The translations under genes and the position numbers were made by a program. Positions 20,144 to 55,494 of a stretch of DNA of 64,000 nucleotides are shown one piece after another. The stretch is from Escherichia phage ECML-183-2. Below the pieces are notes generated by a model, which saw only the letters and a list, made by a program, of their open reading frames with translations, was not told the DNA's origin and made no database searches. The stretch's first letter is position 1, and the number at the start of each line of letters is the position of its first letter. The stretch is from sequence record OL631481.1. One strand, given 5' to 3'.

Positions 20144-20385
20144 TCCGCTATTAACGTCAAACCAAGTGCATCGTTAAAACGCTCAACATTTGAGTATAGG
20201 TATGGAGGGGTTATTTGCTCTAAAATCTGTGCTGCTTCCACTTGGTGCTCTATGTTTTGAGAAGTTCGGGCATAAACTAAGACACCCATTTTATTCAAAA
20301 TAAAAACAGAATCAGACCCATCCAGCTTATCAACGGCTGCATACATTTTAGTCATATCTTCTCCTGGATTACCATTCAGCAACAA
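20137..20385 (-). CDS. hypothetical protein (82 aa)
   Basis: ORF track; C-terminus LIAEW. Confidence 0.45.
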   Translation of the reverse strand: MLLNGNPGEDMTKMYAAVDKLDGSDSVFILNKMGVLVYARTSQNIEHQVEAAQILEQITPPYLYSNVERFNDALGLTLIAEW

Positions 20386-20584
20386 GACTAGGATTCATAG
20401 CAAAAGCTTTGAAAGTTGTTATGTCATGACTAACATTAAAACTAACACCTTTTACTTTCTCTAATATTTGAACTTTCGTCTCTCCGTCCCACGGTAGGAT
20501 GATAACACCATCTTCTGTGATCAACCACCAATGGTTCTCTCCATCTCGTGAATCTTTTGCTTTGTATAGAAAATTGGAACTCAT
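20369..20584 (-). CDS. hypothetical protein (71 aa)
   Basis: ORF track; C-terminus LVAEW similar to neighbour. Confidence 0.45.
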   Translation of the reverse strand: MSSNFLYKAKDSRDGENHWWLITEDGVIILPWDGETKVQILEKVKGVSFNVSHDITTFKAFAMNPSLVAEW

Positions 20585-20786
20585 TCTTCCTCCTGTTCGG
20601 TATTATTCACCTGTGAGACACAATGTAACACAAGCTTTGTGAGTTTGTCAAGGATCTAATTACATTCTACACAAGAAGAGGGGTTAATAACTATAGGAAT
20701 AGTCTCACTATAGGTGCAATACTAGTTAAGAGTTAGATTGATAGGTAAGACTTATCTTAAACAGATAATTGATAGGTGAGTCACCA

Positions 20787-20815
20787 TTGACTTTTTCAAA
20801 AAAGTATGGTACCCT
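20787..20815 (+). promoter_or_regulatory. extended -10 promoter-like element (copy A of a repeated ~60-bp unit)
   Basis: TTGACT-N14-TGg-TACCCT followed by conserved GAGCGATAGCGAGTA at 20830-20844; near-identical copy at 55124-55181. Confidence 0.4.
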
Positions 20816-20945
20816 AAACATATGTTTACGAGCGATAGCGAGTAGTAGATTTCTATATAATAATGTTTCATGTTACTCACGACAGTGAGGTATGAAACGT
20901 AAGTTAAGGTAGATAAACTATGATCATCTATCTACCATCTATTAA

Positions 20946-21155
20946 TCAATATAGATCTAATGTTAGACTAACAGTTATCCAACAAACAATAGCAGTCCAT
21001 ATAACAAGTAATGATCTACAAACTACATCCCATTCAAATACATTGTATGTTAACCATTCTCCCATCACAACAGAAGAACCTAACCAACATCCAACAATAA
21101 CTATAATCCAATAAAAGAATCCTACAGTAGAGTATACAGCAAAAGCTTTTAACAT
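20946..21155 (-). CDS. small membrane protein (69 aa)
   Basis: GGAGG RBS; hydrophobic; overlaps start of next gene. Confidence 0.45.
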   Translation of the reverse strand: MLKAFAVYSTVGFFYWIIVIVGCWLGSSVVMGEWLTYNVFEWDVVCRSLLVIWTAIVCWITVSLTLDLY

Positions 21156-37613: not shown

Positions 37614-37913
37614 TTAGATCGCTGTTTCCAGTAGTTCGGCTAACGTCTTACCGCCTGATAGTTGGTCTAACGTTTGCTCTTCTGGCAAGAAATTAGCTGA
37701 TATTAATCCGACTTGATTTCCTTTGTGCCAATTAGCTTGACGGATGATTCCATCCTTTAAAGATTTTACCGCCATTGTGCAACCGTCGCCAAATGATTCA
37801 TTTTTATGATCCATTACTTCATAAGCGCCCAGCTTGCTGCTGTTAGGCACCATTAACGCGAATACATCACCAACAACCAGCTTTTCTACGGTAACAATAG
37901 CGATAGTTTCCAT
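37614..37913 (-). CDS. hypothetical protein (99 aa)
   Basis: ORF track; GC hairpin 37590-37605 downstream. Confidence 0.5.
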   Translation of the reverse strand: METIAIVTVEKLVVGDVFALMVPNSSKLGAYEVMDHKNESFGDGCTMAVKSLKDGIIRQANWHKGNQVGLISANFLPEEQTLDQLSGGKTLAELLETAI

Positions 37914-37930
37914 TTTACTTTCCTCATTAT

Positions 37931-37986
37931 CGGCGGCACCATTGCCGCCCTACGCATTAAATATAAGTTATCTAAGAGATTAGATC
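37931..37986 (-). promoter_or_regulatory. PeSL-like cassette (early promoter + 5' stem-loop)
   Basis: rc: TTGATC-17-TATATT then GGCGGCA-ATGG-TGCCGCC hairpin. Confidence 0.5.
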
Positions 37987-37991
37987 AAGGA

Positions 37992-38183
37992 TTATTTTGT
38001 AAAGATTACAGCTTCATCAAAATTTTCAACATAGTAAGCAAGCTCTTCATTTGCTGCAACCATTCCTAAAAGTTGGCTATAAGATAAACCTTTGATCCCT
38101 TCCTCGTTGTTTAATGCTTCGATGATTTCATCAACGGGCGCAAAAAACATGTTATTCGATTCCAGGTAGGAGATGGTTTTCAT
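37992..38183 (-). CDS. hypothetical protein (63 aa)
   Basis: ORF track; own cassette upstream. Confidence 0.5.
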   Translation of the reverse strand: MKTISYLESNNMFFAPVDEIIEALNNEEGIKGLSYSQLLGMVAANEELAYYVENFDEAVIFTK

Positions 38184-38204
38184 AATGTTTACCTTTTTCG
38201 GGGA

Positions 38205-38260
38205 GCGGCACCATTGCCGCCCTACGTGGTAAATATTAGCACACTGGCGATCTGTGTCAA
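38205..38260 (-). promoter_or_regulatory. PeSL-like cassette
   Basis: rc: TTGACA-16-TAATAT then GCGGCA-ATGG-TGCCGC hairpin. Confidence 0.55.
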
Positions 38261-38266
38261 TACTTT

Positions 38267-38653
38267 TTATTCAATATAAATCAAATTATCTTCACCAATG
38301 TAAGCCGACACGTTCGGCATAAACTTAGCTGCATTGGTTAGGCGGTTCGCCGTGTTAGTGGTGTATATTTCAGGGCGATCCCAAAAGCCTACGCCGTGAC
38401 CGTTACGGGTAAAATGTAAATCATTCCCGATCTGGTTGGCTGTTGCGCCGTCGCTCATTGCCTCAGAGATAGCGGCAAGATTAGCATTAATAAAGGCTGT
38501 TACATCCTGGGCGATCCGTTGATGGGCTTGATCTGAAAAATCATAATCAGTCATGTCATCTATAAAATTACCTTCATGATCCCTTGCGGATTCAGCAAAA
38601 ATAAAGGCTTCTTTATAACCGTTGATGATTTCAATAATGATTTCTGTTTTCAT
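38267..38653 (-). CDS. hypothetical protein (128 aa)
   Basis: ORF track; conserved-looking GHGVGFWDR segment, family unknown. Confidence 0.5.
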   Translation of the reverse strand: MKTEIIIEIINGYKEAFIFAESARDHEGNFIDDMTDYDFSDQAHQRIAQDVTAFINANLAAISEAMSDGATANQIGNDLHFTRNGHGVGFWDRPEIYTTNTANRLTNAAKFMPNVSAYIGEDNLIYIE

Positions 38654-38874
38654 GCTGTACGCTCGACAATAATAATAGTTTGCGGGATCTCGTTTTCTAC
38701 TACTAACAAGGCTTTTTTCTGTGTGATAGATATTTTAACACGTTGTAAAGTAGCGGTGAAATCTTTCATTTCATTATGCGCGGACTTCGTGCAATGCCAG
38801 ATCTCAGGCTTACCAACTTGTAAGCCGCGTAAAAATTCCGTTTTGCCTGTTTTGTTCGTGATCATTTGTTTCAC
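38650..38874 (-). CDS. hypothetical protein (74 aa)
   Basis: ORF track. Confidence 0.45.
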   Translation of the reverse strand: MKQMITNKTGKTEFLRGLQVGKPEIWHCTKSAHNEMKDFTATLQRVKISITQKKALLVVENEIPQTIIIVERTA

Positions 38875-38875
38875 C

Positions 38876-38980
38876 TTAACCGATACCGTGGGAAGATAGG
38901 ATCATGTTAGCCATAGTTGCAACCACTCCAACCGATAACGCCAGGCCCACTATTACAACCGTGAAAATTTTCTCTAACAT
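38876..38980 (-). CDS. small membrane protein (34 aa)
   Basis: Track ORF trimmed to ATG with GAGGG RBS; upstream part is hairpin read-through. Confidence 0.45.
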   Translation of the reverse strand: MLEKIFTVVIVGLALSVGVVATMANMILSSHGIG

Positions 38981-38996
38981 GATTCTACCCTCATTA

Positions 38997-39059
38997 ATGG
39001 GCGTTGCACCATTGCCCCGCCCTACGTAATACACTTTACCAGATAACAAATTATTGTCA
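38997..39059 (-). promoter_or_regulatory. PeSL-like cassette
   Basis: rc: TTGACA-16-TAAAGT then GC hairpin. Confidence 0.5.
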
Positions 39060-39124
39060 AGGTTTATTTTACTTCCCAAACGGAAAATTCACTGCGTGGC
39101 GGGAAGTATTCCCCGCCTTATTAA

Positions 39125-39295
39125 TTACTCTTCATCGTCGCCGTTATAGTATTCAATGCCGTTTTCATCGGTTACGGTGATGTTAACGCCACCGATAGCA
39201 ACACGATCACGGGCAAACGTCATAGCTTCATTTAAATCTTCAGACCAAAAAATATTGTGACCTTTGCGCGATACATAAAACATAGTCGGGATCAT
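39125..39295 (-). CDS. hypothetical protein (56 aa)
   Basis: Track ORF trimmed to internal ATG; GC hairpin 39097-39116 downstream. Confidence 0.45.
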   Translation of the reverse strand: MIPTMFYVSRKGHNIFWSEDLNEAMTFARDRVAIGGVNITVTDENGIEYYNGDDEE

Positions 39296-39318
39296 GATTT
39301 GTTTCTCTTCTGTTGTGA

Positions 39319-39379
39319 GCGGTGGACCATTCCGCCGCCCTATGTGGTAAACTTTACTACGTTGTTTGCCTGTTGTCAA
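39319..39379 (-). promoter_or_regulatory. PeSL-like cassette
   Basis: rc: TTGACA-17-TAAAGT then GGCGG-loop-CCGCC hairpin. Confidence 0.5.
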
Positions 39380-39380
39380 A

Positions 39381-39665
39381 TTATTTTTTAATGTTTTGCC
39401 CTACAAAATTGATCACTTCCTTAAGCTGTCTCTCTGTCATGATCGTACCTGGTAACTCTTCTTTAATTTCTTCCGGTAAATAGATATTACCGCGCCAGGT
39501 TAACAAACAACCGTTTTGATCTTCGCAGATAGAATAAGAAAACATCCACTCGCAATCATTTTCAAGCTCCCAAAAACACAAAAAGTCTTCTTTCCCTAAG
39601 TTTTCAACGGTTAAACATAATCCGCGACGTGCTGCATAATTAGTCAGGCTTTTTGTGATTTTCAT
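39381..39665 (-). CDS. hypothetical protein (94 aa)
   Basis: Track ORF trimmed to internal ATG. Confidence 0.5.
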   Translation of the reverse strand: MKITKSLTNYAARRGLCLTVENLGKEDFLCFWELENDCEWMFSYSICEDQNGCLLTWRGNIYLPEEIKEELPGTIMTERQLKEVINFVGQNIKK

Positions 39666-39686
39666 GATTTTTCTCTCTTCTTGTGA

Positions 39687-39742
39687 GCGGCACCATTGCC
39701 GCCCTACAAGATACATATTATCAGACTAGGCGGACTTGTCAA
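39687..39742 (-). promoter_or_regulatory. PeSL-like cassette
   Basis: rc: TTGACA-16-TAATAT then GCGGCA-ATGG-TGCCGC hairpin. Confidence 0.55.
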
Positions 39743-39743
39743 A

Positions 39744-39854
39744 CTATTTTTTCTTTTTCTTTGCTTCCAACCGTCTAAGGTTACGGCTTGACTTATTTCG
39801 CAAGGCGCTTAGATCGTCGTACCCTTTCCATGCTTGCATATCTTTCGGATTCAT
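39744..39854 (-). CDS. small basic protein (36 aa)
   Basis: Not in ORF track; AAGGGG RBS; hand-derived coordinates. Confidence 0.3.
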   Translation of the reverse strand: MNPKDMQAWKGYDDLSALRNKSSRNLRRLEAKKKKK

Positions 39855-39863
39855 GTTATCCCC

Positions 39864-40025
39864 TTACTTGTTAGCCGGATCATATACCAGGACCGCGCCG
39901 CTTGCTTTCACGCTTTCCGCTTCATAGTTGCGCAGATCGTTTTCTGTAAGGTTGAGCGCGATCACTTCCTCGATCTCAACGTCAGCGGCAAGGGCGATCT
40001 CTTTGATAATGTCTGTTGTTTTCAT
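39864..40025 (-). CDS. small acidic protein (53 aa)
   Basis: Not in ORF track; AAGGTG RBS; hand-derived coordinates. Confidence 0.35.
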   Translation of the reverse strand: MKTTDIIKEIALAADVEIEEVIALNLTENDLRNYEAESVKASGAVLVYDPANK

Positions 40026-40035
40026 AGTACGCACC

Positions 40036-40155
40036 TTATAAGATGATTGATAAGATAGTGATAACGAAAGCGATTATACTGATGGCAAATGTCATCTTTT
40101 TACCTTCGGATACTGCCGGATTTTCTACCGTGTATTCTACTGTGTACTTGCTCAT
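40036..40155 (-). CDS. small membrane protein (39 aa)
   Basis: Not in ORF track; C-terminal hydrophobic helix; directly after cassette. Confidence 0.35.
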   Translation of the reverse strand: MSKYTVEYTVENPAVSEGKKMTFAISIIAFVITILSIIL

Positions 40156-40178
40156 CGTGTAATCCTCTCGTTTGCTTT

Positions 40179-40235
40179 GGGAACTATTCCCGCCGCCTTA
40201 TGAATTAAATATACACTATCTCAAAATGATTGCAA
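40179..40235 (-). promoter_or_regulatory. PeSL-like cassette
   Basis: rc: TTGCAA-16-TATATT then GGGAA-TAG-TTCCC hairpin. Confidence 0.5.
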
Positions 40236-40252
40236 GCCTTTTTCTAAATTAT

Positions 40253-40537
40253 TTATGCAGTAAACAAACCATCATTTACAACGGCGGCGATGATCTCCCG
40301 TGCCATTGATTCAGGGAAAGGGGCGCTATAGTCCTGGCTTGTCTCATCGGTATCAGTGATCCAATGATAAGCTAACGAGTAAAAGCCTTTACTAACTGTT
40401 TTCAGTGAGATGATGATCACTCGGTCAAGCTTATTGGTGAATGTTGCCGTTAATGTGTTACCCTCCTGCGTCATGTTGGACAAGTAAGCGGGATCATTAA
40501 TCAGGGAAAACATTAGCACGGTGTTAGCTTTACTCAT
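40253..40537 (-). CDS. hypothetical protein (94 aa)
   Basis: Track ORF trimmed to internal ATG; the track ATG lies inside the hairpin loop. Confidence 0.5.
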   Translation of the reverse strand: MSKANTVLMFSLINDPAYLSNMTQEGNTLTATFTNKLDRVIIISLKTVSKGFYSLAYHWITDTDETSQDYSAPFPESMAREIIAAVVNDGLFTA

Positions 40538-40557
40538 GATTGCATCCTCAAAGGGGC

Positions 40558-40612
40558 GCGGCACCATTGCCGCCCTACACGATAACTATAACACAATGTA
40601 AAACAGGATCAA
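40558..40612 (-). promoter_or_regulatory. PeSL-like cassette
   Basis: rc: TTGATC-16-TATAGT then GCGGCA-ATGG-TGCCGC hairpin. Confidence 0.5.
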
Positions 40613-40815
40613 CCTTTATTTTTCCACGGTGTCAGCTTGTTAATCATTGGTGATAAATAGCGTTTACCAACGTAAAACAGTACGCCAACTGATGCAACGG
40701 CGGCGATCTCATGTAAGGAGGAAGGTCGCGCGGTGTCATAATAGGTACCAATAATAGCAATAGCGGCTACTGCGGCAATGTCTGTAATAATTTTTTCTTG
40801 TTTTGCGGTGATCAT
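40609..40815 (-). CDS. small membrane protein (68 aa)
   Basis: Track ORF trimmed to internal ATG; two hydrophobic segments. Confidence 0.5.
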   Translation of the reverse strand: MITAKQEKIITDIAAVAAIAIIGTYYDTARPSSLHEIAAVASVGVLFYVGKRYLSPMINKLTPWKNKG

Positions 40816-40838
40816 AATATTTACCTTTTTGTATGGTG

Positions 40839-40895
40839 GGGGAACTATTCCCCGCCTGATGTAATACAGTTTAACAGGTCCGGTTATGGTGTCAA
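40839..40895 (-). promoter_or_regulatory. PeSL-like cassette
   Basis: rc: TTGACA-15-TAAACT then GGGGAA-TAG-TTCCCC hairpin. Confidence 0.5.
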
Positions 40896-40901
40896 CCACT
40901 T

Positions 40902-41087
40902 TTAAAGATATTTTATATTGATAACGTTTTCAGGTTTAACCTTGTTGTGATGTGCATCAACATAGATCAAACCATCGTCAGAAAAGCCCAGGATCACGCC
41001 CTGCGCAATAAAACCGTATTCGTCACGGTAACGCACGGCTATTTTTAACGTTGCGTTGTAGGCTGTTTTAAGCTCGTTTAAAGTCAT
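40902..41087 (-). CDS. hypothetical protein (61 aa)
   Basis: ORF track. Confidence 0.45.
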   Translation of the reverse strand: MTLNELKTAYNATLKIAVRYRDEYGFIAQGVILGFSDDGLIYVDAHHNKVKPENVINIKYL

Positions 41088-41108
41088 TTTTGTTTATCCT
41101 CTACATGT

Positions 41109-41136
41109 AAAAAGAAAGGGCGCTTGGTGCGCCCTT
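41109..41136 (-). terminator. rho-independent terminator inside the array
   Basis: rc reads AAGGGCGC-ACCAA-GCGCCCTT + TCTTTTT. Confidence 0.6.
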
Positions 41137-41142
41137 GTTATG

Positions 41143-41289
41143 TTAATCCTCTAAATCCATCCAATTATATTTGTCACTCTTCCCGCGCTTTGTTTTATTA
41201 CGCTTGTCGCCTTTTCGGATCACTTCCTCGTTCCAGGCCTTGCGGATCTTGGAAGATTGAATTTTTTCTGCGCGATTAGATGTATTCAT
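41143..41289 (-). CDS. small basic protein (48 aa)
   Basis: Not in ORF track; AAGAGGA RBS; Lys/Arg-rich. Confidence 0.4.
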   Translation of the reverse strand: MNTSNRAEKIQSSKIRKAWNEEVIRKGDKRNKTKRGKSDKYNWMDLED

Positions 41290-41309
41290 TTTGTTTCCTC
41301 TTTATATGA

Positions 41310-41362
41310 GCGGCACCATTGCCGCTATATTATTAATTTAAACTGTTTTGTAAAATTGTCAA
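41310..41362 (-). promoter_or_regulatory. PeSL-like cassette
   Basis: rc: TTGACA-16-TAAATT then GCGGCA-ATGG-TGCCGC hairpin. Confidence 0.5.
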
Positions 41363-41368
41363 GGTTTA

Positions 41369-41722
41369 TCATTGATAAGAGCAAGCAAGGATCACGCCTG
41401 CAATATAAAGCCAATAATTTTCCCTTTCTCGTTGGATTTTATCATCGCTGCTATTCTCTTTAATGTATCCCCAGGATGTTAACAGGCGATCAATTTCCCA
41501 ATATTCGAAAGCGATATTGATATCTGATGGCAAGCCTTGTAACCATGATGCAAGTGCTTTAACAATACTATAATTAAAACGTGATTGGTTATCAGGGTAC
41601 CAGTACTCGGAATTAAAACGGTGCATCAATTCCGCGATCTTCTCTTTTTCGGTTGTAATACCGTAATCATTAAAATCGATAGCGGCAAGGATGTACTCTT
41701 TAATTGCATTTTGTGCTTTCAT
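41369..41722 (-). CDS. hypothetical protein (117 aa)
   Basis: ORF track. Confidence 0.5.
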   Translation of the reverse strand: MKAQNAIKEYILAAIDFNDYGITTEKEKIAELMHRFNSEYWYPDNQSRFNYSIVKALASWLQGLPSDINIAFEYWEIDRLLTSWGYIKENSSDDKIQRERENYWLYIAGVILACSYQ

Positions 41723-41741
41723 GGTCTTTCTCTCTTTTTGA

Positions 41742-41798
41742 GCGGGAACTATTCCCGCCCTACGTGTAACAGTTTACTAAAAATTAAATCCGTGTCAA
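41742..41798 (-). promoter_or_regulatory. PeSL-like cassette
   Basis: rc: TTGACA-16-TAAACT then GCGGGAA-TAG-TTCCCGC hairpin. Confidence 0.55.
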
Positions 41799-41801
41799 GC
41801 T

Positions 41802-42023
41802 TTATTTTGTTACTACCATTTGGTACCCTGTTTCAATGTTAGTAAATACTGTTATCCCGTCCTGGCGTTCACTCATTAGCATACAAGGCGCTAACATCCT
41901 TTCTACTGCCTTGCACTCATTGTAAACGGCGGTTATGTCTCCTGCGGCCTTGTCTTCTGTGGTGAATGTATCGTTTACGTAAACCTGACCAGCGACAACG
42001 GCGACAATAGCGAAAGTGATCAT
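41802..42023 (-). CDS. hypothetical protein (73 aa), shares MITFA 5' end with next-upstream gene
   Basis: ORF track; first ~20 nt of CDS plus RBS duplicated at 42245-42270. Confidence 0.5.
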   Translation of the reverse strand: MITFAIVAVVAGQVYVNDTFTTEDKAAGDITAVYNECKAVERMLAPCMLMSERQDGITVFTNIETGYQMVVTK

Positions 42024-42054
42024 GATGTTTCCTTGTTAGTAGTGGTTTCTCTTC

Positions 42055-42095
42055 TCTATAGCGCCCATTGTAAGGCGCTATAACGAAAAGTCAAC
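42055..42095 (-). promoter_or_regulatory. variant cassette (promoter overlapping TATAGCGCC hairpin)
   Basis: rc: TTGACT-16-TACAAT with 9-bp-stem hairpin overlapping. Confidence 0.4.
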
Positions 42096-42097
42096 GA

Positions 42098-42265
42098 TTA
42101 TTTTTTAAGGCTTAAAGTACCTAACTTGTCAGCATGACGCAGACCAGGGAAGATCCATTTGCCTGATTCATCTTTCACCGGGGCTTTAAGCGTAGCGCCC
42201 AGGTTGGCGGCGTTAACTTTACGTGCAACGTTGCGAGCGGCTTCACGGGTAGCGAAAGTGATCAT
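42098..42265 (-). CDS. small protein (55 aa) starting MITFA
   Basis: Not in ORF track; hand-derived; same 5' end as 41802..42023. Confidence 0.4.
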   Translation of the reverse strand: MITFATREAARNVARKVNAANLGATLKAPVKDESGKWIFPGLRHADKLGTLSLKK

Positions 42266-42289
42266 GATATTTTCCTCTTCTCTTTGTTA

Positions 42290-42351
42290 GGCGGTGGACC
42301 ATTCCGCCGCCTTGATGTAATACAGTTTACTTTATTTTTGCAGTATTGCAA
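42290..42351 (-). promoter_or_regulatory. PeSL-like cassette
   Basis: rc: TTGCAA-16-TAAACT then GGCGG-loop-CCGCC hairpin. Confidence 0.5.
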
Positions 42352-42357
42352 GCGGTT

Positions 42358-42570
42358 TTATGAAATAATCGTCAAAGTAAAATTGTAATCACCTGATTGA
42401 TACAATACTTTATCACCGAACGTTCCAACACGTTTAACATTGCAATATATACCCATAACACTTTTTACATCTTTGATATTCTTCACGCCTGTAATATCTT
42501 TATTAAAATGATCGTGATCAGAAAATAAAACTTGTTTTGCATTTTTCAACAAGGTGCGGATATTAGCCAT
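42358..42570 (-). CDS. hypothetical protein (70 aa)
   Basis: ORF track. Confidence 0.5.
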   Translation of the reverse strand: MANIRTLLKNAKQVLFSDHDHFNKDITGVKNIKDVKSVMGIYCNVKRVGTFGDKVLYQSGDYNFTLTIIS

Positions 42571-42595
42571 CGTGATAATCTCTCTTCTGTTGTGA

Positions 42596-42651
42596 GCGGC
42601 ACTATTGCCGCCCTACGTAATACAGTTTACTCTTTTTCTTTCCCGTGTCAA
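42596..42651 (-). promoter_or_regulatory. PeSL-like cassette
   Basis: rc: TTGACA-16-TAAACT then GCGGCA-ATAG-TGCCGC hairpin. Confidence 0.55.
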
Positions 42652-42660
42652 CAATCTTTT

Positions 42661-42888
42661 TCAGATTAATTCATCCAGGCATAACAGGCGATCAACGTTG
42701 AGATCGGTTAGGCTGATGGTTGGCACCTGGTAGGATTCGATGTACTCGACGCTCGCATATTCTCCAAAATTAGCAATAGCCCACTTATTCAAGATCTCAC
42801 ATACATCATTAATCTTTTTGTTTGTTACAACTGCTACAACCTGGGAACTGCCAACGGTGCCGGATACACGAACAATATTGATAGCCAT
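42661..42888 (-). CDS. hypothetical protein (75 aa)
   Basis: ORF track. Confidence 0.5.
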   Translation of the reverse strand: MAINIVRVSGTVGSSQVVAVVTNKKINDVCEILNKWAIANFGEYASVEYIESYQVPTISLTDLNVDRLLCLDELI

Positions 42889-42911
42889 AATCTTTAATCT
42901 CTCTGTTGTTG

Positions 42912-42970
42912 GCGGGAAACCATTTCCCGCCCTATGTGATACATCTTACACTAATTTTAAACGTTGTCAA
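42912..42970 (-). promoter_or_regulatory. PeSL-like cassette
   Basis: rc: TTGACA-16-TAAGAT then GCGGGAAA-TGG-TTTCCCGC hairpin. Confidence 0.55.
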
Positions 42971-42980
42971 CTGTTTTTTA

Positions 42981-43220
42981 TTACATTCCAACCATCGCGG
43001 CACGGATCGCAGTAGTGCTATATTTGAAACCGTCTGGAGTTTTATCTTGTCCAGTTTGTTCCAGAAAAAGCATCATATCCCGCGCCGCATCATTACGATT
43101 AGCATTAGCGTTAATAAAATCCAAGGCCAACCGATACAATGATTCATCGTTATTAATCCAAAGGCTTACATTCCAATGAGTTTTGTTTTTGTGACCGTTG
43201 TACATTTTAGATTTAGCCAT
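42981..43220 (-). CDS. hypothetical protein (79 aa)
   Basis: ORF track. Confidence 0.5.
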   Translation of the reverse strand: MAKSKMYNGHKNKTHWNVSLWINNDESLYRLALDFINANANRNDAARDMMLFLEQTGQDKTPDGFKYSTTAIRAAMVGM

Positions 43221-43244
43221 GATTTTTCTCTCTTTTTCAGTGAG

Positions 43245-43303
43245 GCGGGAAGTGTTCCCGCTCTCTATGTAATACAGTTTACTCTTTTTATTCGTGCTGT
43301 CAA
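43245..43303 (-). promoter_or_regulatory. PeSL-like cassette
   Basis: rc: TTGACA-16-TAAACT then GCGGGAA-CACT-TCCCGC hairpin. Confidence 0.55.
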
Positions 43304-43309
43304 TGCTTT

Positions 43310-43675
43310 TTATAAATCTTTTTTACGTTTTACATCGCTTGCATGACTGTATACAGTGATCCCATTGTCACGGCAAAAACGGGAAAGATACGCGCCGCGT
43401 GAAAATTCCTTGCCCTCAAGGTTGATAACCTTGCTAAATTCTTCCAGGGCGACGGTATCAAAATGATCACCATAGCCATATTGAAACGGAACGTTAACCA
43501 CCTCGATCAGTTTACCGCCGATCTCAACGTCAACCAGTAAAGAAAAATATGTGTTACCGTAGGACTGTTGAAACCAGCGACGGGCACTAATATGCACCGC
43601 CTCAATGCTGGATAATTCAATTTTAGCCGTGTTAGCCAGGGTAGCATAAGCGGAAACATTGATATTAATAGCCAT
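43310..43675 (-). CDS. hypothetical protein (121 aa)
   Basis: ORF track. Confidence 0.5.
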   Translation of the reverse strand: MAININVSAYATLANTAKIELSSIEAVHISARRWFQQSYGNTYFSLLVDVEIGGKLIEVVNVPFQYGYGDHFDTVALEEFSKVINLEGKEFSRGAYLSRFCRDNGITVYSHASDVKRKKDL

Positions 43676-43701
43676 GGTGTCACTCTCTCTTTTTGGTTAG
43701 T

Positions 43702-43753
43702 GGGAAGTATTCCCGATAAAAGTTATTATGCTTATACTATCACTCATTGTCAA
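43702..43753 (-). promoter_or_regulatory. PeSL-like cassette
   Basis: rc: TTGACA-17-CATAAT then GGGAA-TAC-TTCCC hairpin. Confidence 0.5.
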
Positions 43754-43772
43754 TAGTATAAGACTAAAACTT

Positions 43773-43952
43773 TTAACGATAATCATTATAGGCTTTATTG
43801 ACCTGGCGAATGTAACATTCGAAAGCAAGATCAATGTATTCGTATTCACGCACATAATCACCATAGGTCACTACATACATTTTTAAAGTTTCCTCATAAG
43901 CCAGGAGGATCGAATCTAAACCTATAATCTCAGTTTTTGCAATGATAGCCAT
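43773..43952 (-). CDS. hypothetical small protein (59 aa)
   Basis: Not in ORF track; AAAAGG RBS; hand-derived coordinates. Confidence 0.4.
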   Translation of the reverse strand: MAIIAKTEIIGLDSILLAYEETLKMYVVTYGDYVREYEYIDLAFECYIRQVNKAYNDYR

Positions 43953-43974
43953 GATGTTAACCTTTTATTGTTGG

Positions 43975-44029
43975 CGGCACCATTGCCGCCCTACGTGATA
44001 AACTATACCAGAAGTTTAAACAGTGTCAA
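43975..44029 (-). promoter_or_regulatory. PeSL-like cassette
   Basis: rc: TTGACA-15-TATAGT then GCGGCA-ATGG-TGCCGC hairpin. Confidence 0.5.
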
Positions 44030-44035
44030 CCGTTT

Positions 44036-44398
44036 TTATTCGTAAATTTTACCGCTTTCGGCCCATACCATAACGCGGCGCATACTATCCCAAGTGTTTT
44101 GATCCAGGTTTAAGCCGTGCAACTCTTCGGTACTTCCCAGACCAGGTACCGCTTTGTTGTAAGTCGCATATAAGCGCCCTTGATACTCATACGCCAGAGT
44201 AAGATCCGTTTGAATCATCTTTTTAAGCATAGCATTAAGCATCATATTAGCGGCATGTTGATCACGTTTTAGCGGTAACATGTCAATAAGGGCGCGATAA
44301 GCTGAAACATGAATATCAACCGTTTCACGTGGTAAATTTTTCATATCATCGCGGAAGGACACCAGGTTTAACATGATAGTATTGATTTGCTTGCTCAT
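44036..44398 (-). CDS. hypothetical protein (120 aa)
   Basis: ORF track; AAGGG RBS. Confidence 0.5.
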   Translation of the reverse strand: MSKQINTIMLNLVSFRDDMKNLPRETVDIHVSAYRALIDMLPLKRDQHAANMMLNAMLKKMIQTDLTLAYEYQGRLYATYNKAVPGLGSTEELHGLNLDQNTWDSMRRVMVWAESGKIYE

Positions 44399-44419
44399 TG
44401 TGTTACCCTTTTTTGTTTT

Positions 44420-44480
44420 GGCGGGGAAGTATTCCGCCGCCCTATGTGATACATCTTATCAGATTAAAAAACGTTGTCAA
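44420..44480 (-). promoter_or_regulatory. PeSL-like cassette
   Basis: rc: TTGACA-16-TAAGAT then GGCGG-loop-CCGCC hairpin. Confidence 0.55.
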
Positions 44481-44488
44481 GAATATTT

Positions 44489-44584
44489 TTAGAAAATAAT
44501 AGCCGCTACTACAATCCAAAATGGAACGGCTAGAATGATAGCGTTAATCGTTCCAACCGTCAAGCTATTTTCTTTATTAATCAT
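44489..44584 (-). CDS. small membrane protein (31 aa)
   Basis: Not in ORF track; AAGAGG RBS; hydrophobic C-terminus. Confidence 0.35.
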   Translation of the reverse strand: MINKENSLTVGTINAIILAVPFWIVVAAIIF

Positions 44585-44613
44585 TGTAAGCCTCTTGCAT
44601 AATTTCACTATGA

Positions 44614-44670
44614 GCGGCACCATTGCCGCCCTACGTGGTAAATATTATGCCAGTGGCGGCGATATGTCAA
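44614..44670 (-). promoter_or_regulatory. PeSL-like cassette
   Basis: rc: TTGACA-17-TAATAT then GCGGCA-ATGG-TGCCGC hairpin. Confidence 0.55.
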
Positions 44671-45224
44671 AGACTATTTTCAAAGTTTTCTAGTGCGATC
44701 CTTTTTTCTTCCTCTGTCGGCTGATAATCAGGAAAAGCATCAACACACAACAACGGCGGGATCTCTTCGTACTCTTCCTCTTCCGTTGTCTCCTCGTCTT
44801 CCTCCTGGGCTATGGCTGCAATTTTGGCTAATTTTCTTTCAGCTTGAATCAATTTACCATCAAGTACGTTTTTTGCCATGTTGTAAGCGGTCCAGGTGAT
44901 GCGCTTACTTTCCAGTGCTTGATCAAGCGCCGCTATCTTGCTGGGGTATTCATCCAGGACACGAAAAGCCGGATCAACTTTGTACAAAGGATTATCTTTC
45001 GCGCCGTCGCTCGCATCTTCCGCACTGGATAAATCAGCGTTACCATTTGCCAGCCAGCCAGGGCGCACATAACGCGCTTTTACGTTGCCGTTACTACGTG
45101 CTAATCTGTTACCTATTTGCTCACCACTATATCCCGTGGATTCATCGATAAGATGATCGGGAATGATGCGCGGATCATCTGCTTCATGTTTTACCCAAGA
45201 CTGGATCACATATTCGCGGCCCAT
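44667..45224 (-). CDS. hypothetical protein (185 aa), acidic C-terminus
   Basis: Track ORF trimmed to ATG; no cassette of its own, coupled to upstream gene. Confidence 0.5.
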   Translation of the reverse strand: MGREYVIQSWVKHEADDPRIIPDHLIDESTGYSGEQIGNRLARSNGNVKARYVRPGWLANGNADLSSAEDASDGAKDNPLYKVDPAFRVLDEYPSKIAALDQALESKRITWTAYNMAKNVLDGKLIQAERKLAKIAAIAQEEDEETTEEEEYEEIPPLLCVDAFPDYQPTEEEKRIALENFENSL

Positions 45225-45225
45225 A

Positions 45226-45483
45226 TTAACCACCTTTTTTCAACAATTGGCATACTTTAAAAAGACTTGCTGAATCCTTGCAAGGGTAGAAAGATGTACG
45301 ATAATCACGTACGCCAACCTTGCGGATCTCGATGTTCTCGCATGTTGTTTGATCAAAGATATTTATTTCATCACGCCCCCTTATATAAACATAGTGGGGA
45401 TGTATTAACGCATATTTTGCTAATCTGTAAAAAGCGTTATCTTTGAACGCGATCACGTGACCTTTTAATTTGATGTAAAACAT
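45226..45483 (-). CDS. hypothetical protein (85 aa)
   Basis: ORF track. Confidence 0.5.
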   Translation of the reverse strand: MFYIKLKGHVIAFKDNAFYRLAKYALIHPHYVYIRGRDEINIFDQTTCENIEIRKVGVRDYRTSFYPCKDSASLFKVCQLLKKGG

Positions 45484-45501
45484 TCTACCACCTTACAAAT
45501 A

Positions 45502-45556
45502 GCGGGAACTATTCCCGCTTTATGTAACATATTAACAAATTATTCGTTAATGTCAA
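45502..45556 (-). promoter_or_regulatory. PeSL-like cassette
   Basis: rc: TTGACA-16-TAATAT then GCGGGAA-TAG-TTCCCGC hairpin. Confidence 0.55.
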
Positions 45557-45559
45557 ACC

Positions 45560-45832
45560 TTAAAGCAAAAACGCTACATCTTGCGCTTTTAGTGTAGTAT
45601 CAACCATTTTCGGGCTTTTATAATCAACAAAGCGCGCGGTTTTTTCAATAGCGAAACCGAGATAATCTTGTTTATTGAATTTACATTCTTTCTTAAATGT
45701 TTCCCGCGCCACGGTGATCGCTGCGTCCAGGGATAAACGCCCGTCAATGTTGATATTTGCGAAAGATCCGCCACCGCTCATAGGTTTACCAGTGGTGCCA
45801 GCTACGATCATTGTTGCGCTATATGATGCCAT
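45560..45832 (-). CDS. hypothetical protein (90 aa)
   Basis: Track ORF trimmed to internal ATG. Confidence 0.5.
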   Translation of the reverse strand: MASYSATMIVAGTTGKPMSGGGSFANINIDGRLSLDAAITVARETFKKECKFNKQDYLGFAIEKTARFVDYKSPKMVDTTLKAQDVAFLL

Positions 45833-45857
45833 GATTATAATCTCTCTTCTGTTGTGA

Positions 45858-45918
45858 GCGGCTGGACCATTCCGCCGCCCTATGTGATACATCTTATCAG
45901 GTTGTTGTTTGTTGTCAA
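45858..45918 (-). promoter_or_regulatory. PeSL-like cassette
   Basis: rc: TTGACA-16-TAAGAT then GGCGG-loop-CCGCC hairpin. Confidence 0.55.
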
Positions 45919-45924
45919 TACTTT

Positions 45925-46122
45925 TTATTCTATTCCTGCAATTTGATTAACGCGCTTGCATTTTGTAGCGTGCTGGTCTTCTGTAATGACTCCCATTTCT
46001 AACAGGGAATCAATGAAAGATAAAACCGTTTCATGATCATCCTGGGGATGACTGAACTCAGTAAAACCGTTTACCACGACGCTGATTTGTCCTGCTTTCG
46101 CTACTATGTGCAATGTTGCCAT
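45925..46122 (-). CDS. hypothetical protein (65 aa)
   Basis: Track ORF trimmed to internal ATG with GGAG RBS. Confidence 0.5.
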   Translation of the reverse strand: MATLHIVAKAGQISVVVNGFTEFSHPQDDHETVLSFIDSLLEMGVITEDQHATKCKRVNQIAGIE

Positions 46123-46143
46123 GATTTTAACTCCAAATAATGA

Positions 46144-46200
46144 GCGGCACCATTGCCGCCCTACGTGGTAAATATTATGCCGCCACCTGGCGAACGTCAA
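46144..46200 (-). promoter_or_regulatory. PeSL-like cassette (last/upstream-most of array)
   Basis: rc: TTGACG-17-TAATAT then GCGGCA-ATGG-TGCCGC hairpin 46144-46159. Confidence 0.55.
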
Positions 46201-46919: not shown

Positions 46920-46967
46920 TTTCCATATGAGAACTCTTCTCATTCCCATCTGCATAAATTTTTGTAA

Positions 46968-47146
46968 ACTTTAAATTTTGCTTTTGTACTTTCATTTTTG
47001 TAAAAGCAAAAAAACTTTAAATACTGTGGGCGCGCAAAATTTTTAAAATTTTCCTTGACTTTTGAGTTTTGTTTTGTATCTAACATTTTAAGATAATTTT
47101 CCTAAACTTTAAATTTTGGTTTTCAACTTTCACTTTTGTAAATTCT
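46968..47146. repeat. AT-rich direct repeats (two ~40-bp units) with inverted AAACTTTAAA/TTTAAAGTTT elements
   Basis: aaactttaaattttgcttttgtactttcatttttgtaaa vs aaactttaaattttggttttcaactttcacttttgtaaa. Confidence 0.6.
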
Positions 47147-47303
47147 TAAAAAGTTTAAATAATTTGAGGGATTTTTGAGATAATAGGTAGTGGGAATTTG
47201 AGATAACCTTTAATCTTATTAGTAGACCTTCAGGAACCCACTCAGATCGAATCCTAGTGATGCAAACTGAAAAAGACAAGGGTTTGTATAGGACAAAATA
47301 ACA

Positions 47304-55123: not shown

Positions 55124-55152
55124 TTGACTTTTTTCAAAAAATATGCTACCCT
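55124..55152 (+). promoter_or_regulatory. extended -10 promoter-like element (copy B of repeated unit)
   Basis: TTGACT-N14-TGc-TACCCT then GAGCGATAGCGAGTA at 55167-55181; long structured leader before 55297. Confidence 0.45.
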
Positions 55153-55296
55153 AACCCCGAAGGGTCGAGCGATAGCGAGTATAGATTATGTAATAGATTA
55201 ATCTCTATCGTTAGATGTTCGAAGAACAGAGATTTAAGTACTTGTTCTTATCGGTAGATGATCGTAAGATCAAGAACAATAATAGGAGAGTGTGTT

Positions 55297-55494
55297 ATGT
55301 TAGTCAGTGAAATACTACCTGACTCTAATGGTAATCAGATCACTGTTGATTGGTTTCCTGGTACTGGTACACTAGATCTAACTGCTGAATGGTCTGGTGA
55401 TATTTATGGAGAAGGTGTATTATCATTGTCTACAGAACAAATGATCATCCTTCGTGACTTCTTAATTAGTTTAGATCTAGGAGAAAACAAATGA
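55297..55494 (+). CDS. hypothetical protein (65 aa)
   Basis: Track ORF trimmed to ATG with AGGAGAG RBS. Confidence 0.45.
   Translation: MLVSEILPDSNGNQITVDWFPGTGTLDLTAEWSGDIYGEGVLSLSTEQMIILRDFLISLDLGENK

Follow-up and report, generated by a model that had tools for sequence, protein, structure and literature searches.

The 20.8-kb unit of this phage is best explained, at a probability that we put at roughly 0.55, as a self-contained gene encoding a structured non-coding RNA (~120 nt), which would be transcribed from a cassette of promoter plus 5' hairpin that would also serve the gene at 55.3 kb and the tRNA side of the genome. Absent from annotations and from the RNA database, the unit is, as far as its sequence tells, an unlisted phage small RNA gene with a sigma-70 promoter. 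Phapecoctavirus-type phages are commonly isolated with a view to treating infections by pathogenic E. coli and Klebsiella; to our knowledge, nothing has been established about transcription control in this phage group. Even if the RNA proved to be a mere stable by-product, its recognition would be a useful correction of the annotation.

The window, a stretch of 64,000 nucleotides from Escherichia phage ECML-183-2 (OL631481.1), belongs to Phapecoctavirus, subfamily Stephanstirmvirinae, and represents a phAPEC8-like myovirus of E. coli. The 3-kb stretch around the 20.8-kb copy (copy A) has matches at ~98% identity in about 60 E. coli phages of this kind, and the 55-kb region is matched at 99.7% by Dompiswa phage TSP7_1, the closest relative. 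Copy A lies within a 360-bp gap (window 20585–20945) that, according to annotated relatives, separates two minus-strand genes; inside this gap, the records of some relatives annotate a 39-aa CDS and a minus-strand terminator. The immediate surroundings are as follows:

20369–20584, minus strand: conserved neighbour gene, 71 aa, orthologue of phi92 gp024 (37% identity, E 9e-12)
20622–20651, minus strand: predicted promoter TTGACA-18-TACATT for the gene at 20369–20584, divergent from copy A and called by the window scan
20946–21155, minus strand: convergent ORF, 69 aa, ending 10 nt past hairpin 2 (described below)

The right-hand 69-aa ORF, considered as the possible small hydrophobic toxin of a type I toxin-antitoxin pair with an overlapping antisense RNA, looks hydrophobic by eye, shows no homology to the corresponding phi92 neighbour and is not a conserved gene. 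Pfam returned no family for six neighbouring proteins, including the products of 20369–20584, 20946–21155 and 55297–55494, and the window holds no tRNA genes. In the phiWec190 clade, the stretch bearing the minus-strand promoter at 20622–20651 is missing.

The initial annotation had described a promoter-plus-leader unit repeated at 20.8 and 55.1 kb, and both copies (A and B) are indeed found there, with a similarity far above chance:

20787–20792, plus strand: -35 element TTGACT of copy A, 17 nt from the -10
20807–20815, plus strand: predicted extended -10 TGgTACCCT of copy A (TG 20807–20808, TACCCT 20810–20815)
55124–55152, plus strand: predicted promoter of copy B, TTGACT-17-TGcTACCCT (TTGACT 55124–55129, TG 55144–55145, TACCCT 55147–55152)
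55166–55179, plus strand: hairpin core of copy B, CGAGCGATAGCGAG, 13 nt past TACCCT and without a lower stem
55159–55296, plus strand: predicted leader of copy B, ~138 nt from the putative start site, ahead of the 65-aa gene 55297–55494; MFE -35 kcal/mol, z -2.57

Copy A reads TACCCTAA, 12 nt, then GAGCGATAGCGAGTA at 20830–20844, with its hairpin core CGAGCGATAGCGAG at 20829–20842, again 13 nt past TACCCT; in copy B, GAGCGATAGCGAGTA occupies 55167–55181. The structured leader of ~140 nt that had been proposed behind the 55.1-kb copy agrees with the ~138 nt between the putative start and the ATG at 55297. The TAGATT word that had been included in the unit is common to both window copies, but not to the family as a whole. 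Within the window, the best non-self match of copy A is copy B (66 nt, 80.3% identity, E ~1e-9), at 51.1 bits against a median best non-self score of 22.6 bits for 300 random 69-mers; three of these 300 queries scored at least as high as A against B, and presumably they fall in the window's other real repeat families. Aligning the two copies, which had been suggested as a check, therefore places them, with 66 nt at 80% identity, above chance for the DNA of this window. The pattern CGAGC-N(3–6)-GCGAG occurs exactly twice in the window against an expectation of 0.04, and none of 100 shuffles reached two occurrences. The exact 15-mer alone is not significant, as 16 of 100 shuffles gave at least two matches when three mismatches were allowed.

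The complete TSP7_1 genome contains exactly three copies, namely the two window copies and one at 147.4 kb (copy C). The latter reads TTGACT-17-TGcTACCCTA-12-CGAGCGCAGCGAG and lies outside the window, in a divergent region, where it precedes two small ORFs and tRNA genes. The repetition noted earlier thus holds for both window copies, but the number per genome is three, with the third copy heading the tRNA cluster. The DNA that follows copy C is very A+T-rich.

The geometry of these sites fits a sigma-70 extended -10 promoter of the form TTGACT-17-TGnTACCCTA. In both window copies the -35 element TTGACT has five of the six positions of TTGACA, the spacer measures 17 nt, and a TG (as TGg or TGc) stands one base upstream of the -10; this TG is invariant in the aligned family. 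The -10 element TACCCT keeps T1, A2 and T6 only, i.e. three of the six positions of TATAAT. Because a simple promoter scan needs four of six in the -10, promoters of the copy A and B type are missed by it. Across 14 aligned members from phages and islands, the TT.A of the -35, TG.TACCCTA, CGAGCG and AGCGAG are invariant, and just a T-run and an A-run are kept in the spacer. These alignments define a class of promoters whose -10, TGnTACCCTA, is both unusual and invariant, and we offer no explanation for its strictly invariant CCC. Promoter activity and both ends of the RNA are predictions from the sequence; our literature searches found no transcriptome for these phages. We envision that host RNA polymerase with sigma-70 would start at about 20822 from TTGACT, 17 nt and TGgTACCCT, and that promoter and 5' hairpin together would form a cassette used three times, driving the copy A RNA, the leader ahead of the 55.3-kb gene and the unit reading into the tRNA cluster.

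The conserved GAGCGATAGCGAG that follows the promoter is the upper part of a predicted hairpin with a covarying lower stem:

20826–20845, plus strand: 5' hairpin; lower stem U.G, U-A, A-U, then C:G, tandem G.A/A.G, G:C, C:G and the loop GAUA

The top of this hairpin (C:G, tandem G.A/A.G, G:C, C:G, loop GNA or GNNA) is invariant, and RNAalifold, applied to the A-type copies, pairs the bases on both sides of the motif. For the covariation test, 14 instances were anchored on the motif and scored for a defined structure, in which four lower pairs lead to the G.A/A.G internal loop (2x2), then to one G:C and one C:G pair and a loop of 3–4 bases. Over the 14 instances, 83.7% of the lower-stem cells were paired, compared with 26–44% when the partners were slid, and the covariation score of the lower stem was 0.377 against 0.159 +/- 0.042 in shuffles, a score reached by none of 500. 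Three of the lower-stem pairs show A-U, U-A, C-G, G.U and U.G types. G.U and U.G pairs in a covarying stem argue for RNA over duplex DNA, and here they are compatible only with the strand transcribed from the predicted promoter. The first base of the loop is G and the last is A in every instance (GAA, GCA, GAUA, GUAA, GAAA, GGGA). Given a start 7 nt past the -10, the hairpin would lie 4–6 nt from the 5' end of the transcript. ViennaRNA reproduced it in five of six copies tested, at -4 to -7 kcal/mol, and with such modest energies we dropped the idea of an exceptionally stable hairpin. Copy B has the core and lacks the lower stem. A kink-turn was also considered, and the G.A/A.G pairs were found to form a symmetric 2x2 internal loop with no three-base bulge. 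An upper part without variation would suggest that the hairpin is recognised specifically and is not kept for stability alone. Most likely, the hairpin would act at the RNA level, either as an element protecting the 5' end or as a tag read by a protein.

Downstream of this hairpin, copy A is followed by two further predicted hairpins:

20822–20945, plus strand: predicted non-coding RNA of ~120 nt, with its start set 7 nt past the -10 and its end likewise predicted
20865–20898, plus strand: hairpin 1 from folding, with outer stem GTTTCAT...ATGAAAC and inner stem CTCAC/GTGAG
20908–20936, plus strand: hairpin 2, GGTAGATA...TATCTACC, probable 3' end of the RNA, in common with the convergent gene

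The transcript would thus run through the 5' hairpin (20826–20845), placed 4–5 nt in from its 5' end, and hairpin 1 (20865–20898) and end at or near hairpin 2 (20908–20936), just before the stop codon of the convergent gene; unless there is read-through, the predicted RNA stops 10 nt short of that codon. The plus strand folds at an MFE of -32.5 kcal/mol (z -2.97) and the minus strand at -27.8 kcal/mol (z -2.08), so that the plus strand folds slightly better. In the record of phage ASO2A, another group annotated hairpin 2 with TransTermHP as a minus-strand rho-independent terminator. Hairpin 2 has no U-run and was not called by the window terminator scan, so transcription may continue into the convergent gene. 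As neither hairpin 1 nor hairpin 2 includes a G.U pair, the minus strand would fold into them just as readily, and their role could instead be to terminate the minus-strand operon. The only plus-strand ORF past copy A (20920–21114, 64 aa) is antisense to a gene annotated in relatives, and its phiWec190 counterpart has just 22 aa, which bears out the earlier observation that the 20.8-kb copy points rightward in a leftward block without a credible plus-strand ORF. ORFs on both strands vary between lineages in frame, start and length, and none is conserved.

A pattern scan of IMG/VR, together with blastn against GenBank phages, revealed A-, B- and C-type copies in further lineages: the phiWec190/PsgM04F clade, Citrobacter phage Tr1, Justusliebigvirus (phi92, PD06) and a Klebsiella phage lineage (FKP3, KP2025, phi1_175008 and one environmental contig). 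The A-type copy is kept in five Stephanstirmvirinae lineages, i.e. Phapecoctavirus, the phiWec190 clade, Tr1, the Klebsiella phages and Justusliebigvirus. In all five it sits between minus-strand genes and opposes them, with 85–135 nt to the stop codon of the convergent gene, and its left neighbour is orthologous in Phapecoctavirus and phi92. Among eight Phapecoctavirus genomes, the 155 nt from the -35 through hairpin 2 contain just four variable sites, all of which we place in the spacer, loops or linker, whereas many changes fall in the preceding 100 nt of the same alignment. The phiWec190 clade is alignable only from the TTGATAGG repeats onward, and as we read that alignment, two pairs of the outer stem of hairpin 1 have changed on both sides in this clade. 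Since five lineages keep the orientation and the transcribed part is nearly invariant while the upstream DNA varies, a small RNA is the best reading of copy A, and of the antisense or small RNA that the initial annotation had proposed, the sequence comparison favours the latter. Synteny, conservation, folding and the shifting ORFs together fit a non-coding RNA gene of ~120 nt. This RNA may well be regulatory, although that is our guess.

Rfam gave no match in the whole window at the gathering score and, for 20700–21000 at E up to 10, just a chance snoRNA match (E 1.2) and no C4. RNAduplex of the predicted RNA against both window strands returned trivial antisense matches only, with no convincing trans target, and searches of the literature, made with taxon names and with sequence strings, turned up no account of a promoter-hairpin-RNA unit of this kind.

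To delimit the family, the pattern TACCCTA-N(8–20)-CGAGCG-N(0–3)-AGCGAG was scanned in IMG/VR and in one genome per species (596 Gb). For this gapped 19-base pattern, about 225 chance matches are expected in the 596 Gb of genomes, and about 15–20 in IMG/VR, which we take to comprise ~45 Gb. Of the 120 genome matches listed, 80 lie inside long ORFs. A widespread motif was therefore rejected: by chance rate and placement within ORFs, most matches are noise or belong to an unrelated, abundant hairpin repeat. Many intergenic matches represent this separate repeat, TGTCAT-stem-GAGCG-N-AGCGAG-stem-ATC, which is found in unrelated phyla and for which Rfam has no family. Its core is identical to that of the phage hairpin (variable lower stem, C:G, tandem G.A/A.G, G:C, C:G, GNA or GNNA loop), but it differs from the phage unit in its flanks, in the lack of a promoter and in its high copy number, and the common core may be convergent. 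A set of environmental viral contigs (L010 and others) carries two divergent TACCCTAT-C7-AACGAGCGAAGCGAG copies between a block of small genes and a 496-aa ORF, presumably a terminase. These sites have no TTGAC -35 and a context like that of a phage-polymerase type promoter; we set them aside as coincidental or convergent.

Among the matches listed, the full unit occurs only in Stephanstirmvirinae contigs and at six island-type loci, which carry the -35, TGc, TACCCTA and the hairpin: Citrobacter sp. OP27, a Scandinavium MAG, two Buttiauxella MAGs, one further MAG and an IMG/VR contig (L035). At five of the six (the further MAG being the exception), the unit starts ~10 nt past the stop codon of a tyrosine integrase, identified by Pfam (PF00589) at the Citrobacter locus and by the conserved 3' end of the upstream ORF at the others. 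On L035, an ORF-free stretch of ~740 nt separates the unit from a further, perfect TTGACA-17-TATAAT promoter, past which lie two unassigned ORFs and genes for an endonuclease VII-like protein, a DUF5906/primase-like protein and an HTH protein; this gene run also includes a resolvase and an Eco29kI restriction-modification pair. With regard to a phage satellite of the P4 or PICI kind, a PF00589 integrase and a DUF5906/primase-like protein are present, and no structural genes were seen within the 8–13 kb covered. There are no tRNA genes beside the island integrases, and by tblastn the island ORFs have no homologous protein in the phage.

The likeness between copy A and the islands extends beyond the 5' hairpin. 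Past it, ATAATAATGTTTCATGTTACTCACGACAGTGAG-GTATG of copy A aligns to ATAGTGATCTTTCATGTTAGTCATGAAAGAGGGAGTATG of the predicted island RNA with z values of 6–10, a score reached by none of 300 shuffles, and this match ranks first among 1768 windows drawn from the island loci. The B-type leaders mostly show no such match. Hairpin 1 of the phage is homologous to the UUUCAUG...CAUGAAA hairpin of the island RNA, which would be ~157 nt long and, as folded, shows several hairpins, a few compensatory changes and fixed G.U pairs. Rfam has no match in the island RNA region, and no copy of the island RNA turned up among 5,426 complete E. coli genomes, PLSDB plasmids and the phage collection. We would guess that integrase-carrying islands in related bacteria employ this RNA family too. 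The RNA might even be a regulator shared in a conflict between virulent Stephanstirmvirinae phages and integrase-primase islands of Enterobacteriaceae, in which the island copies the unit to sense or exploit infection, or the phage mimics a control RNA of the island to silence it. We consider this speculative and unlikely; it would parallel the P4 CI and P1 C4 immunity RNAs or a phage-encoded pseudo-ToxI. That islands carry the unit offers a concrete starting point for tests of RNA-based cross-talk of virulent phages with mobile islands.

Several alternative explanations of copy A were weighed. Only the head-on transcription might matter, with polymerase collision or antisense pairing across the 20.6–20.9-kb gap limiting the gp024-like gene and those that follow it. 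In each of the five lineages copy A faces the operon upstream of it, one and the same conserved gene always has the unit immediately upstream, its hairpins might work on either strand, and the phi92 gp023–gp024 gap of ~207 nt implies that minus-strand transcripts reaching gp024 probably cross the unit. However, the transcribed 120 nt are conserved beyond the need of a mere promoter, the island unit has no convergent gene and points in the same direction as the genes that follow, and the downstream gene of the window (20369–20584) has a predicted promoter of its own; we see this explanation, the main rival, as a minority one that still carries some weight. It is quite improbable, in our view, that the unit acts as DNA, i.e. 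as a regulator binding site or an origin of transcription-primed replication. This would suit three copies per genome, the very A+T-rich DNA after copy C, the short palindromes centred on the predicted start in many copies, and an island unit placed between integrase and primase-like operon beside repeated segments. Yet the G.U and U.G pairs in the covarying lower stem favour RNA, the start-site palindromes are absent from copy C, and nothing else marks an origin.

As with lambda nut boxB or HK022 put, the hairpin could also serve in the nascent RNA to load an antitermination factor of the phage, so that polymerase from the three promoters would pass terminators, and the islands would copy this site to be switched on at infection. 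The site lies directly past the promoter in three units per genome and is a short G+C stem with a G...A loop, its upper part is as invariant as a specific binder would require, and islands with an integrase and a primase-like gene fit an infection sensor. This proposal strikes us as improbable: inspection by eye revealed no boxA-like word, past copy B no plus-strand terminator was called by the scan, the L035 ORFs are preceded by a perfect consensus promoter of their own, 740 nt from the unit, and read-through at copy A would yield antisense RNA only. Least credible of all is that the conservation stems from a small minus-strand protein gene, phAPEC8_0059 (39 aa) and similar short CDSs. Short ORFs are annotated across the unit in phAPEC8, ASO2A, phi1_175008 and PsgM04F, and open frames exist in four lineages. 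However, the frame over the motif encodes S-L-S-L in Phapecoctavirus versus P-R-Y-R-S in the Klebsiella and phi92 lineages, the starts differ (+71, +57, +12), Tr1 has no such ORF, and in phiWec190 the phAPEC8_0059 frame reads ATG CAA TAA. No ribosome-binding site was found by inspection, and the motif shows the same invariance in copies B and C as well as in the islands, none of which could encode an ORF of this kind. The short CDSs annotated across the unit are probably not genes.

The predicted non-coding RNA and its cassette recall several known systems. In phage T5, PN25, P25 and P26 are strong early sigma-70 promoters with a conserved transcript start. Like them, the predicted promoters described here are of the sigma-70 type and repeated in the genome, with similarity reaching into the first 20–30 transcribed bases; unlike them, they have an invariant TGnTACCCTA and a hairpin with a covarying stem, and one copy has no gene behind it. 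Stem-loops at the 5' terminus, as in the ompA leader, shield RNA from decay that depends on the 5' end, and the phage hairpin likewise lies within a few bases of the predicted end. Whereas hairpins of the ompA type need no fixed sequence, 12 bases are invariant here across phage genera and islands, which again points to specific recognition. With lambda nut boxB and HK022 put, the unit shares a short hairpin just past the promoter, a purine-type G...A loop and several units per phage. It differs from these in having no boxA, a tandem G.A internal loop, tri- or tetraloops in place of a pentaloop, and no terminators found past copy B; for the phage studied here, we know of no N-like factor. The P1/P7 C4 and P4 CI RNAs resemble the predicted RNA as small, structured, ORF-less RNAs past a promoter, common to phages and a primase-carrying integrative satellite, but for the phage region and the island no Rfam match to C4 (E up to 10) was obtained, no complementary target was found in the window, and the phage here is virulent. 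Finally, the stable RNAs C and D of T4, encoded beside its tRNA cluster, offer a precedent for small RNAs in a large virulent coliphage. In the phage studied here, the promoter class of the predicted RNA would also serve the tRNA cluster, but there is no sequence relation to the T4 RNAs and the RNA gene lies ~40 kb from the tRNA genes.

Upstream of copy A, the initial annotation had pointed to a putative operator at 20737–20782, formed by two direct repeats and a palindrome. The repeats are present and conserved:

20737–20746, plus strand: direct repeat 1, ATTGATAGGT, near position -85 relative to the predicted start, unchanged across 11 genomes, the phiWec190 clade among them
20768–20777, plus strand: direct repeat 2, ATTGATAGGT, 31 bp after repeat 1, reading ATTGATAGGG in the phiWec190 clade

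Repeat 2 falls at about -54 from the putative start, and both repeats are upstream of the -35. Such positions are not where a blocking operator would sit. The TTATCT/AGATAA palindrome, present in the window, is broken in ukendt, nepoznato and the phiWec190 clade. The operator assignment consequently has partial support only, from the conserved TTGATAGG repeats and not from the palindrome or the position. Genome-wide, TTGATAGG is not enriched (10 found versus ~6 expected). A TTGATAG/CTATCAA word occurs upstream of the A copy in all five lineages, with varying orientation and distance. On this thin evidence, the repeats may be binding sites for a regulator that acts either on copy A or on the divergent promoter (20651–20622). 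Elsewhere in the window, many early promoters at 37.9–46.2 kb share the plan of a promoter followed by a hairpin, each with its own class-specific hairpin.

The hairpin core of the phage unit (copies A, B and C), with its C:G pair and tandem G.A/A.G pairs, is also found in environmental viral contigs and in bacterial genomes. A 45-nt unit, ATTAGAATGAATCTATACCCTATCCCCCCCAACGAGCGAAGCGAG, occurs as a divergent pair at 2024-2161 of the IMG/VR contig L010, and a similar arrangement is present in about 25 further IMG/VR contigs (L011, L012, L018, L020 and others). The 45-nt unit looks like a promoter of the phage-polymerase type, followed by the hairpin core as in copies A, B and C. The paired units are flanked on one side by a block of small genes and on the other by a large 496-aa ORF and then an 800-aa ORF; our guess is that these two encode terminase and portal.

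A very abundant bacterial repeat, (C)TGTCAT-stem-GAGCG-N-AGCGAG-stem-ATC(T), occurs in MAGs from many phyla. Its lower stem covaries, and its tandem G.A hairpin core is identical to that of the phage unit. Many of the matches come from a single Planctomycetaceae MAG, and comparison of the repeat with Rfam found no family for it. The loci are as follows.

TGTCAT-type repeat: L077, L081, L086, L089, L101, L104, L107, L112
TGTCAT-type repeat, continued: L125, L131, L146, L160, L167, L177, L179

Within the window, a second class of putative promoter-hairpin unit and several other repeated elements can be distinguished.

37907-46172, minus strand: repeated intergenic unit of the second class, at least 11 copies
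46957-47166: two 72-nt direct repeats, AATTTTTGTAAACTTTAAATTTTG..., 82% identical and 138 nt apart
21925, 26088, 26844 and 30126: repeats of 40-44 nt, families D8 and D10, within minus-strand coding DNA
12388, 34708 and 36733: TTGATAGG adjoining its inverted partner (examples TTGATAGGTTAAGTTTATCAA and TTGATAGGAATCCCCTATGA)

Read along the minus strand, the intergenic units comprise TTGACA and TAATAT with a spacer of 16-17 nt between them and, about 7 nt further on, a conserved hairpin of the form GCGGCA-ATGG-TGCCGC, or a variant of it, followed by a ribosome site and ATG. This layout looks like that of an early promoter class, each copy of which would carry its own fixed 5' hairpin. The 72-nt repeats, which we read as placed where gene orientation switches, may represent divergent promoters or an origin. 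The D8 and D10 repeats suggest a small paralogous gene family in the 22-30 kb block. The TTGATAGG words with their inverted partners are candidate palindromic binding sites, and could have a factor in common with the direct repeats upstream of copy A.

Two further regions lie outside the window, one in the IMG/VR contig L035 and the other in the Dompiswa phage TSP7_1, the closest relative.

L035 10392-13165: resolvase and Eco29kI-type restriction enzyme with C5 cytosine methylase, in an island with a related RNA
TSP7_1 147.45-147.69 kb (L008 47450-47690): ORF-free stretch of about 270 nt after copy C

The resolvase and the restriction enzyme with its methylase are defence cargo of the L035 island. 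In the TSP7_1 stretch, 3' of copy C, the word GTACT recurs, and one run, TTAATAATTATTAAATATTAATAATAAATAATTATTAG, is very rich in A+T.

Sequence of copy A or B also appears in three contigs, L069, L108 and L165, assigned to bacterial assemblies: the Proteobacteria MAG OH_PFB_59 and Lysobacteraceae JHOS43, the latter with contigs of 453 and 495 bp. Over the stretch compared, this sequence differs little or not at all from that of the window, and the contigs are probably phage DNA binned among bacterial genomes. Several phage records named for Campylobacter, Acinetobacter, Pseudomonas or Klebsiella have 98-99% identity to this E. coli phage group, and their host labels look doubtful; Campylobacter phage B15 is one example, Acinetobacter phage ABPW7 another.
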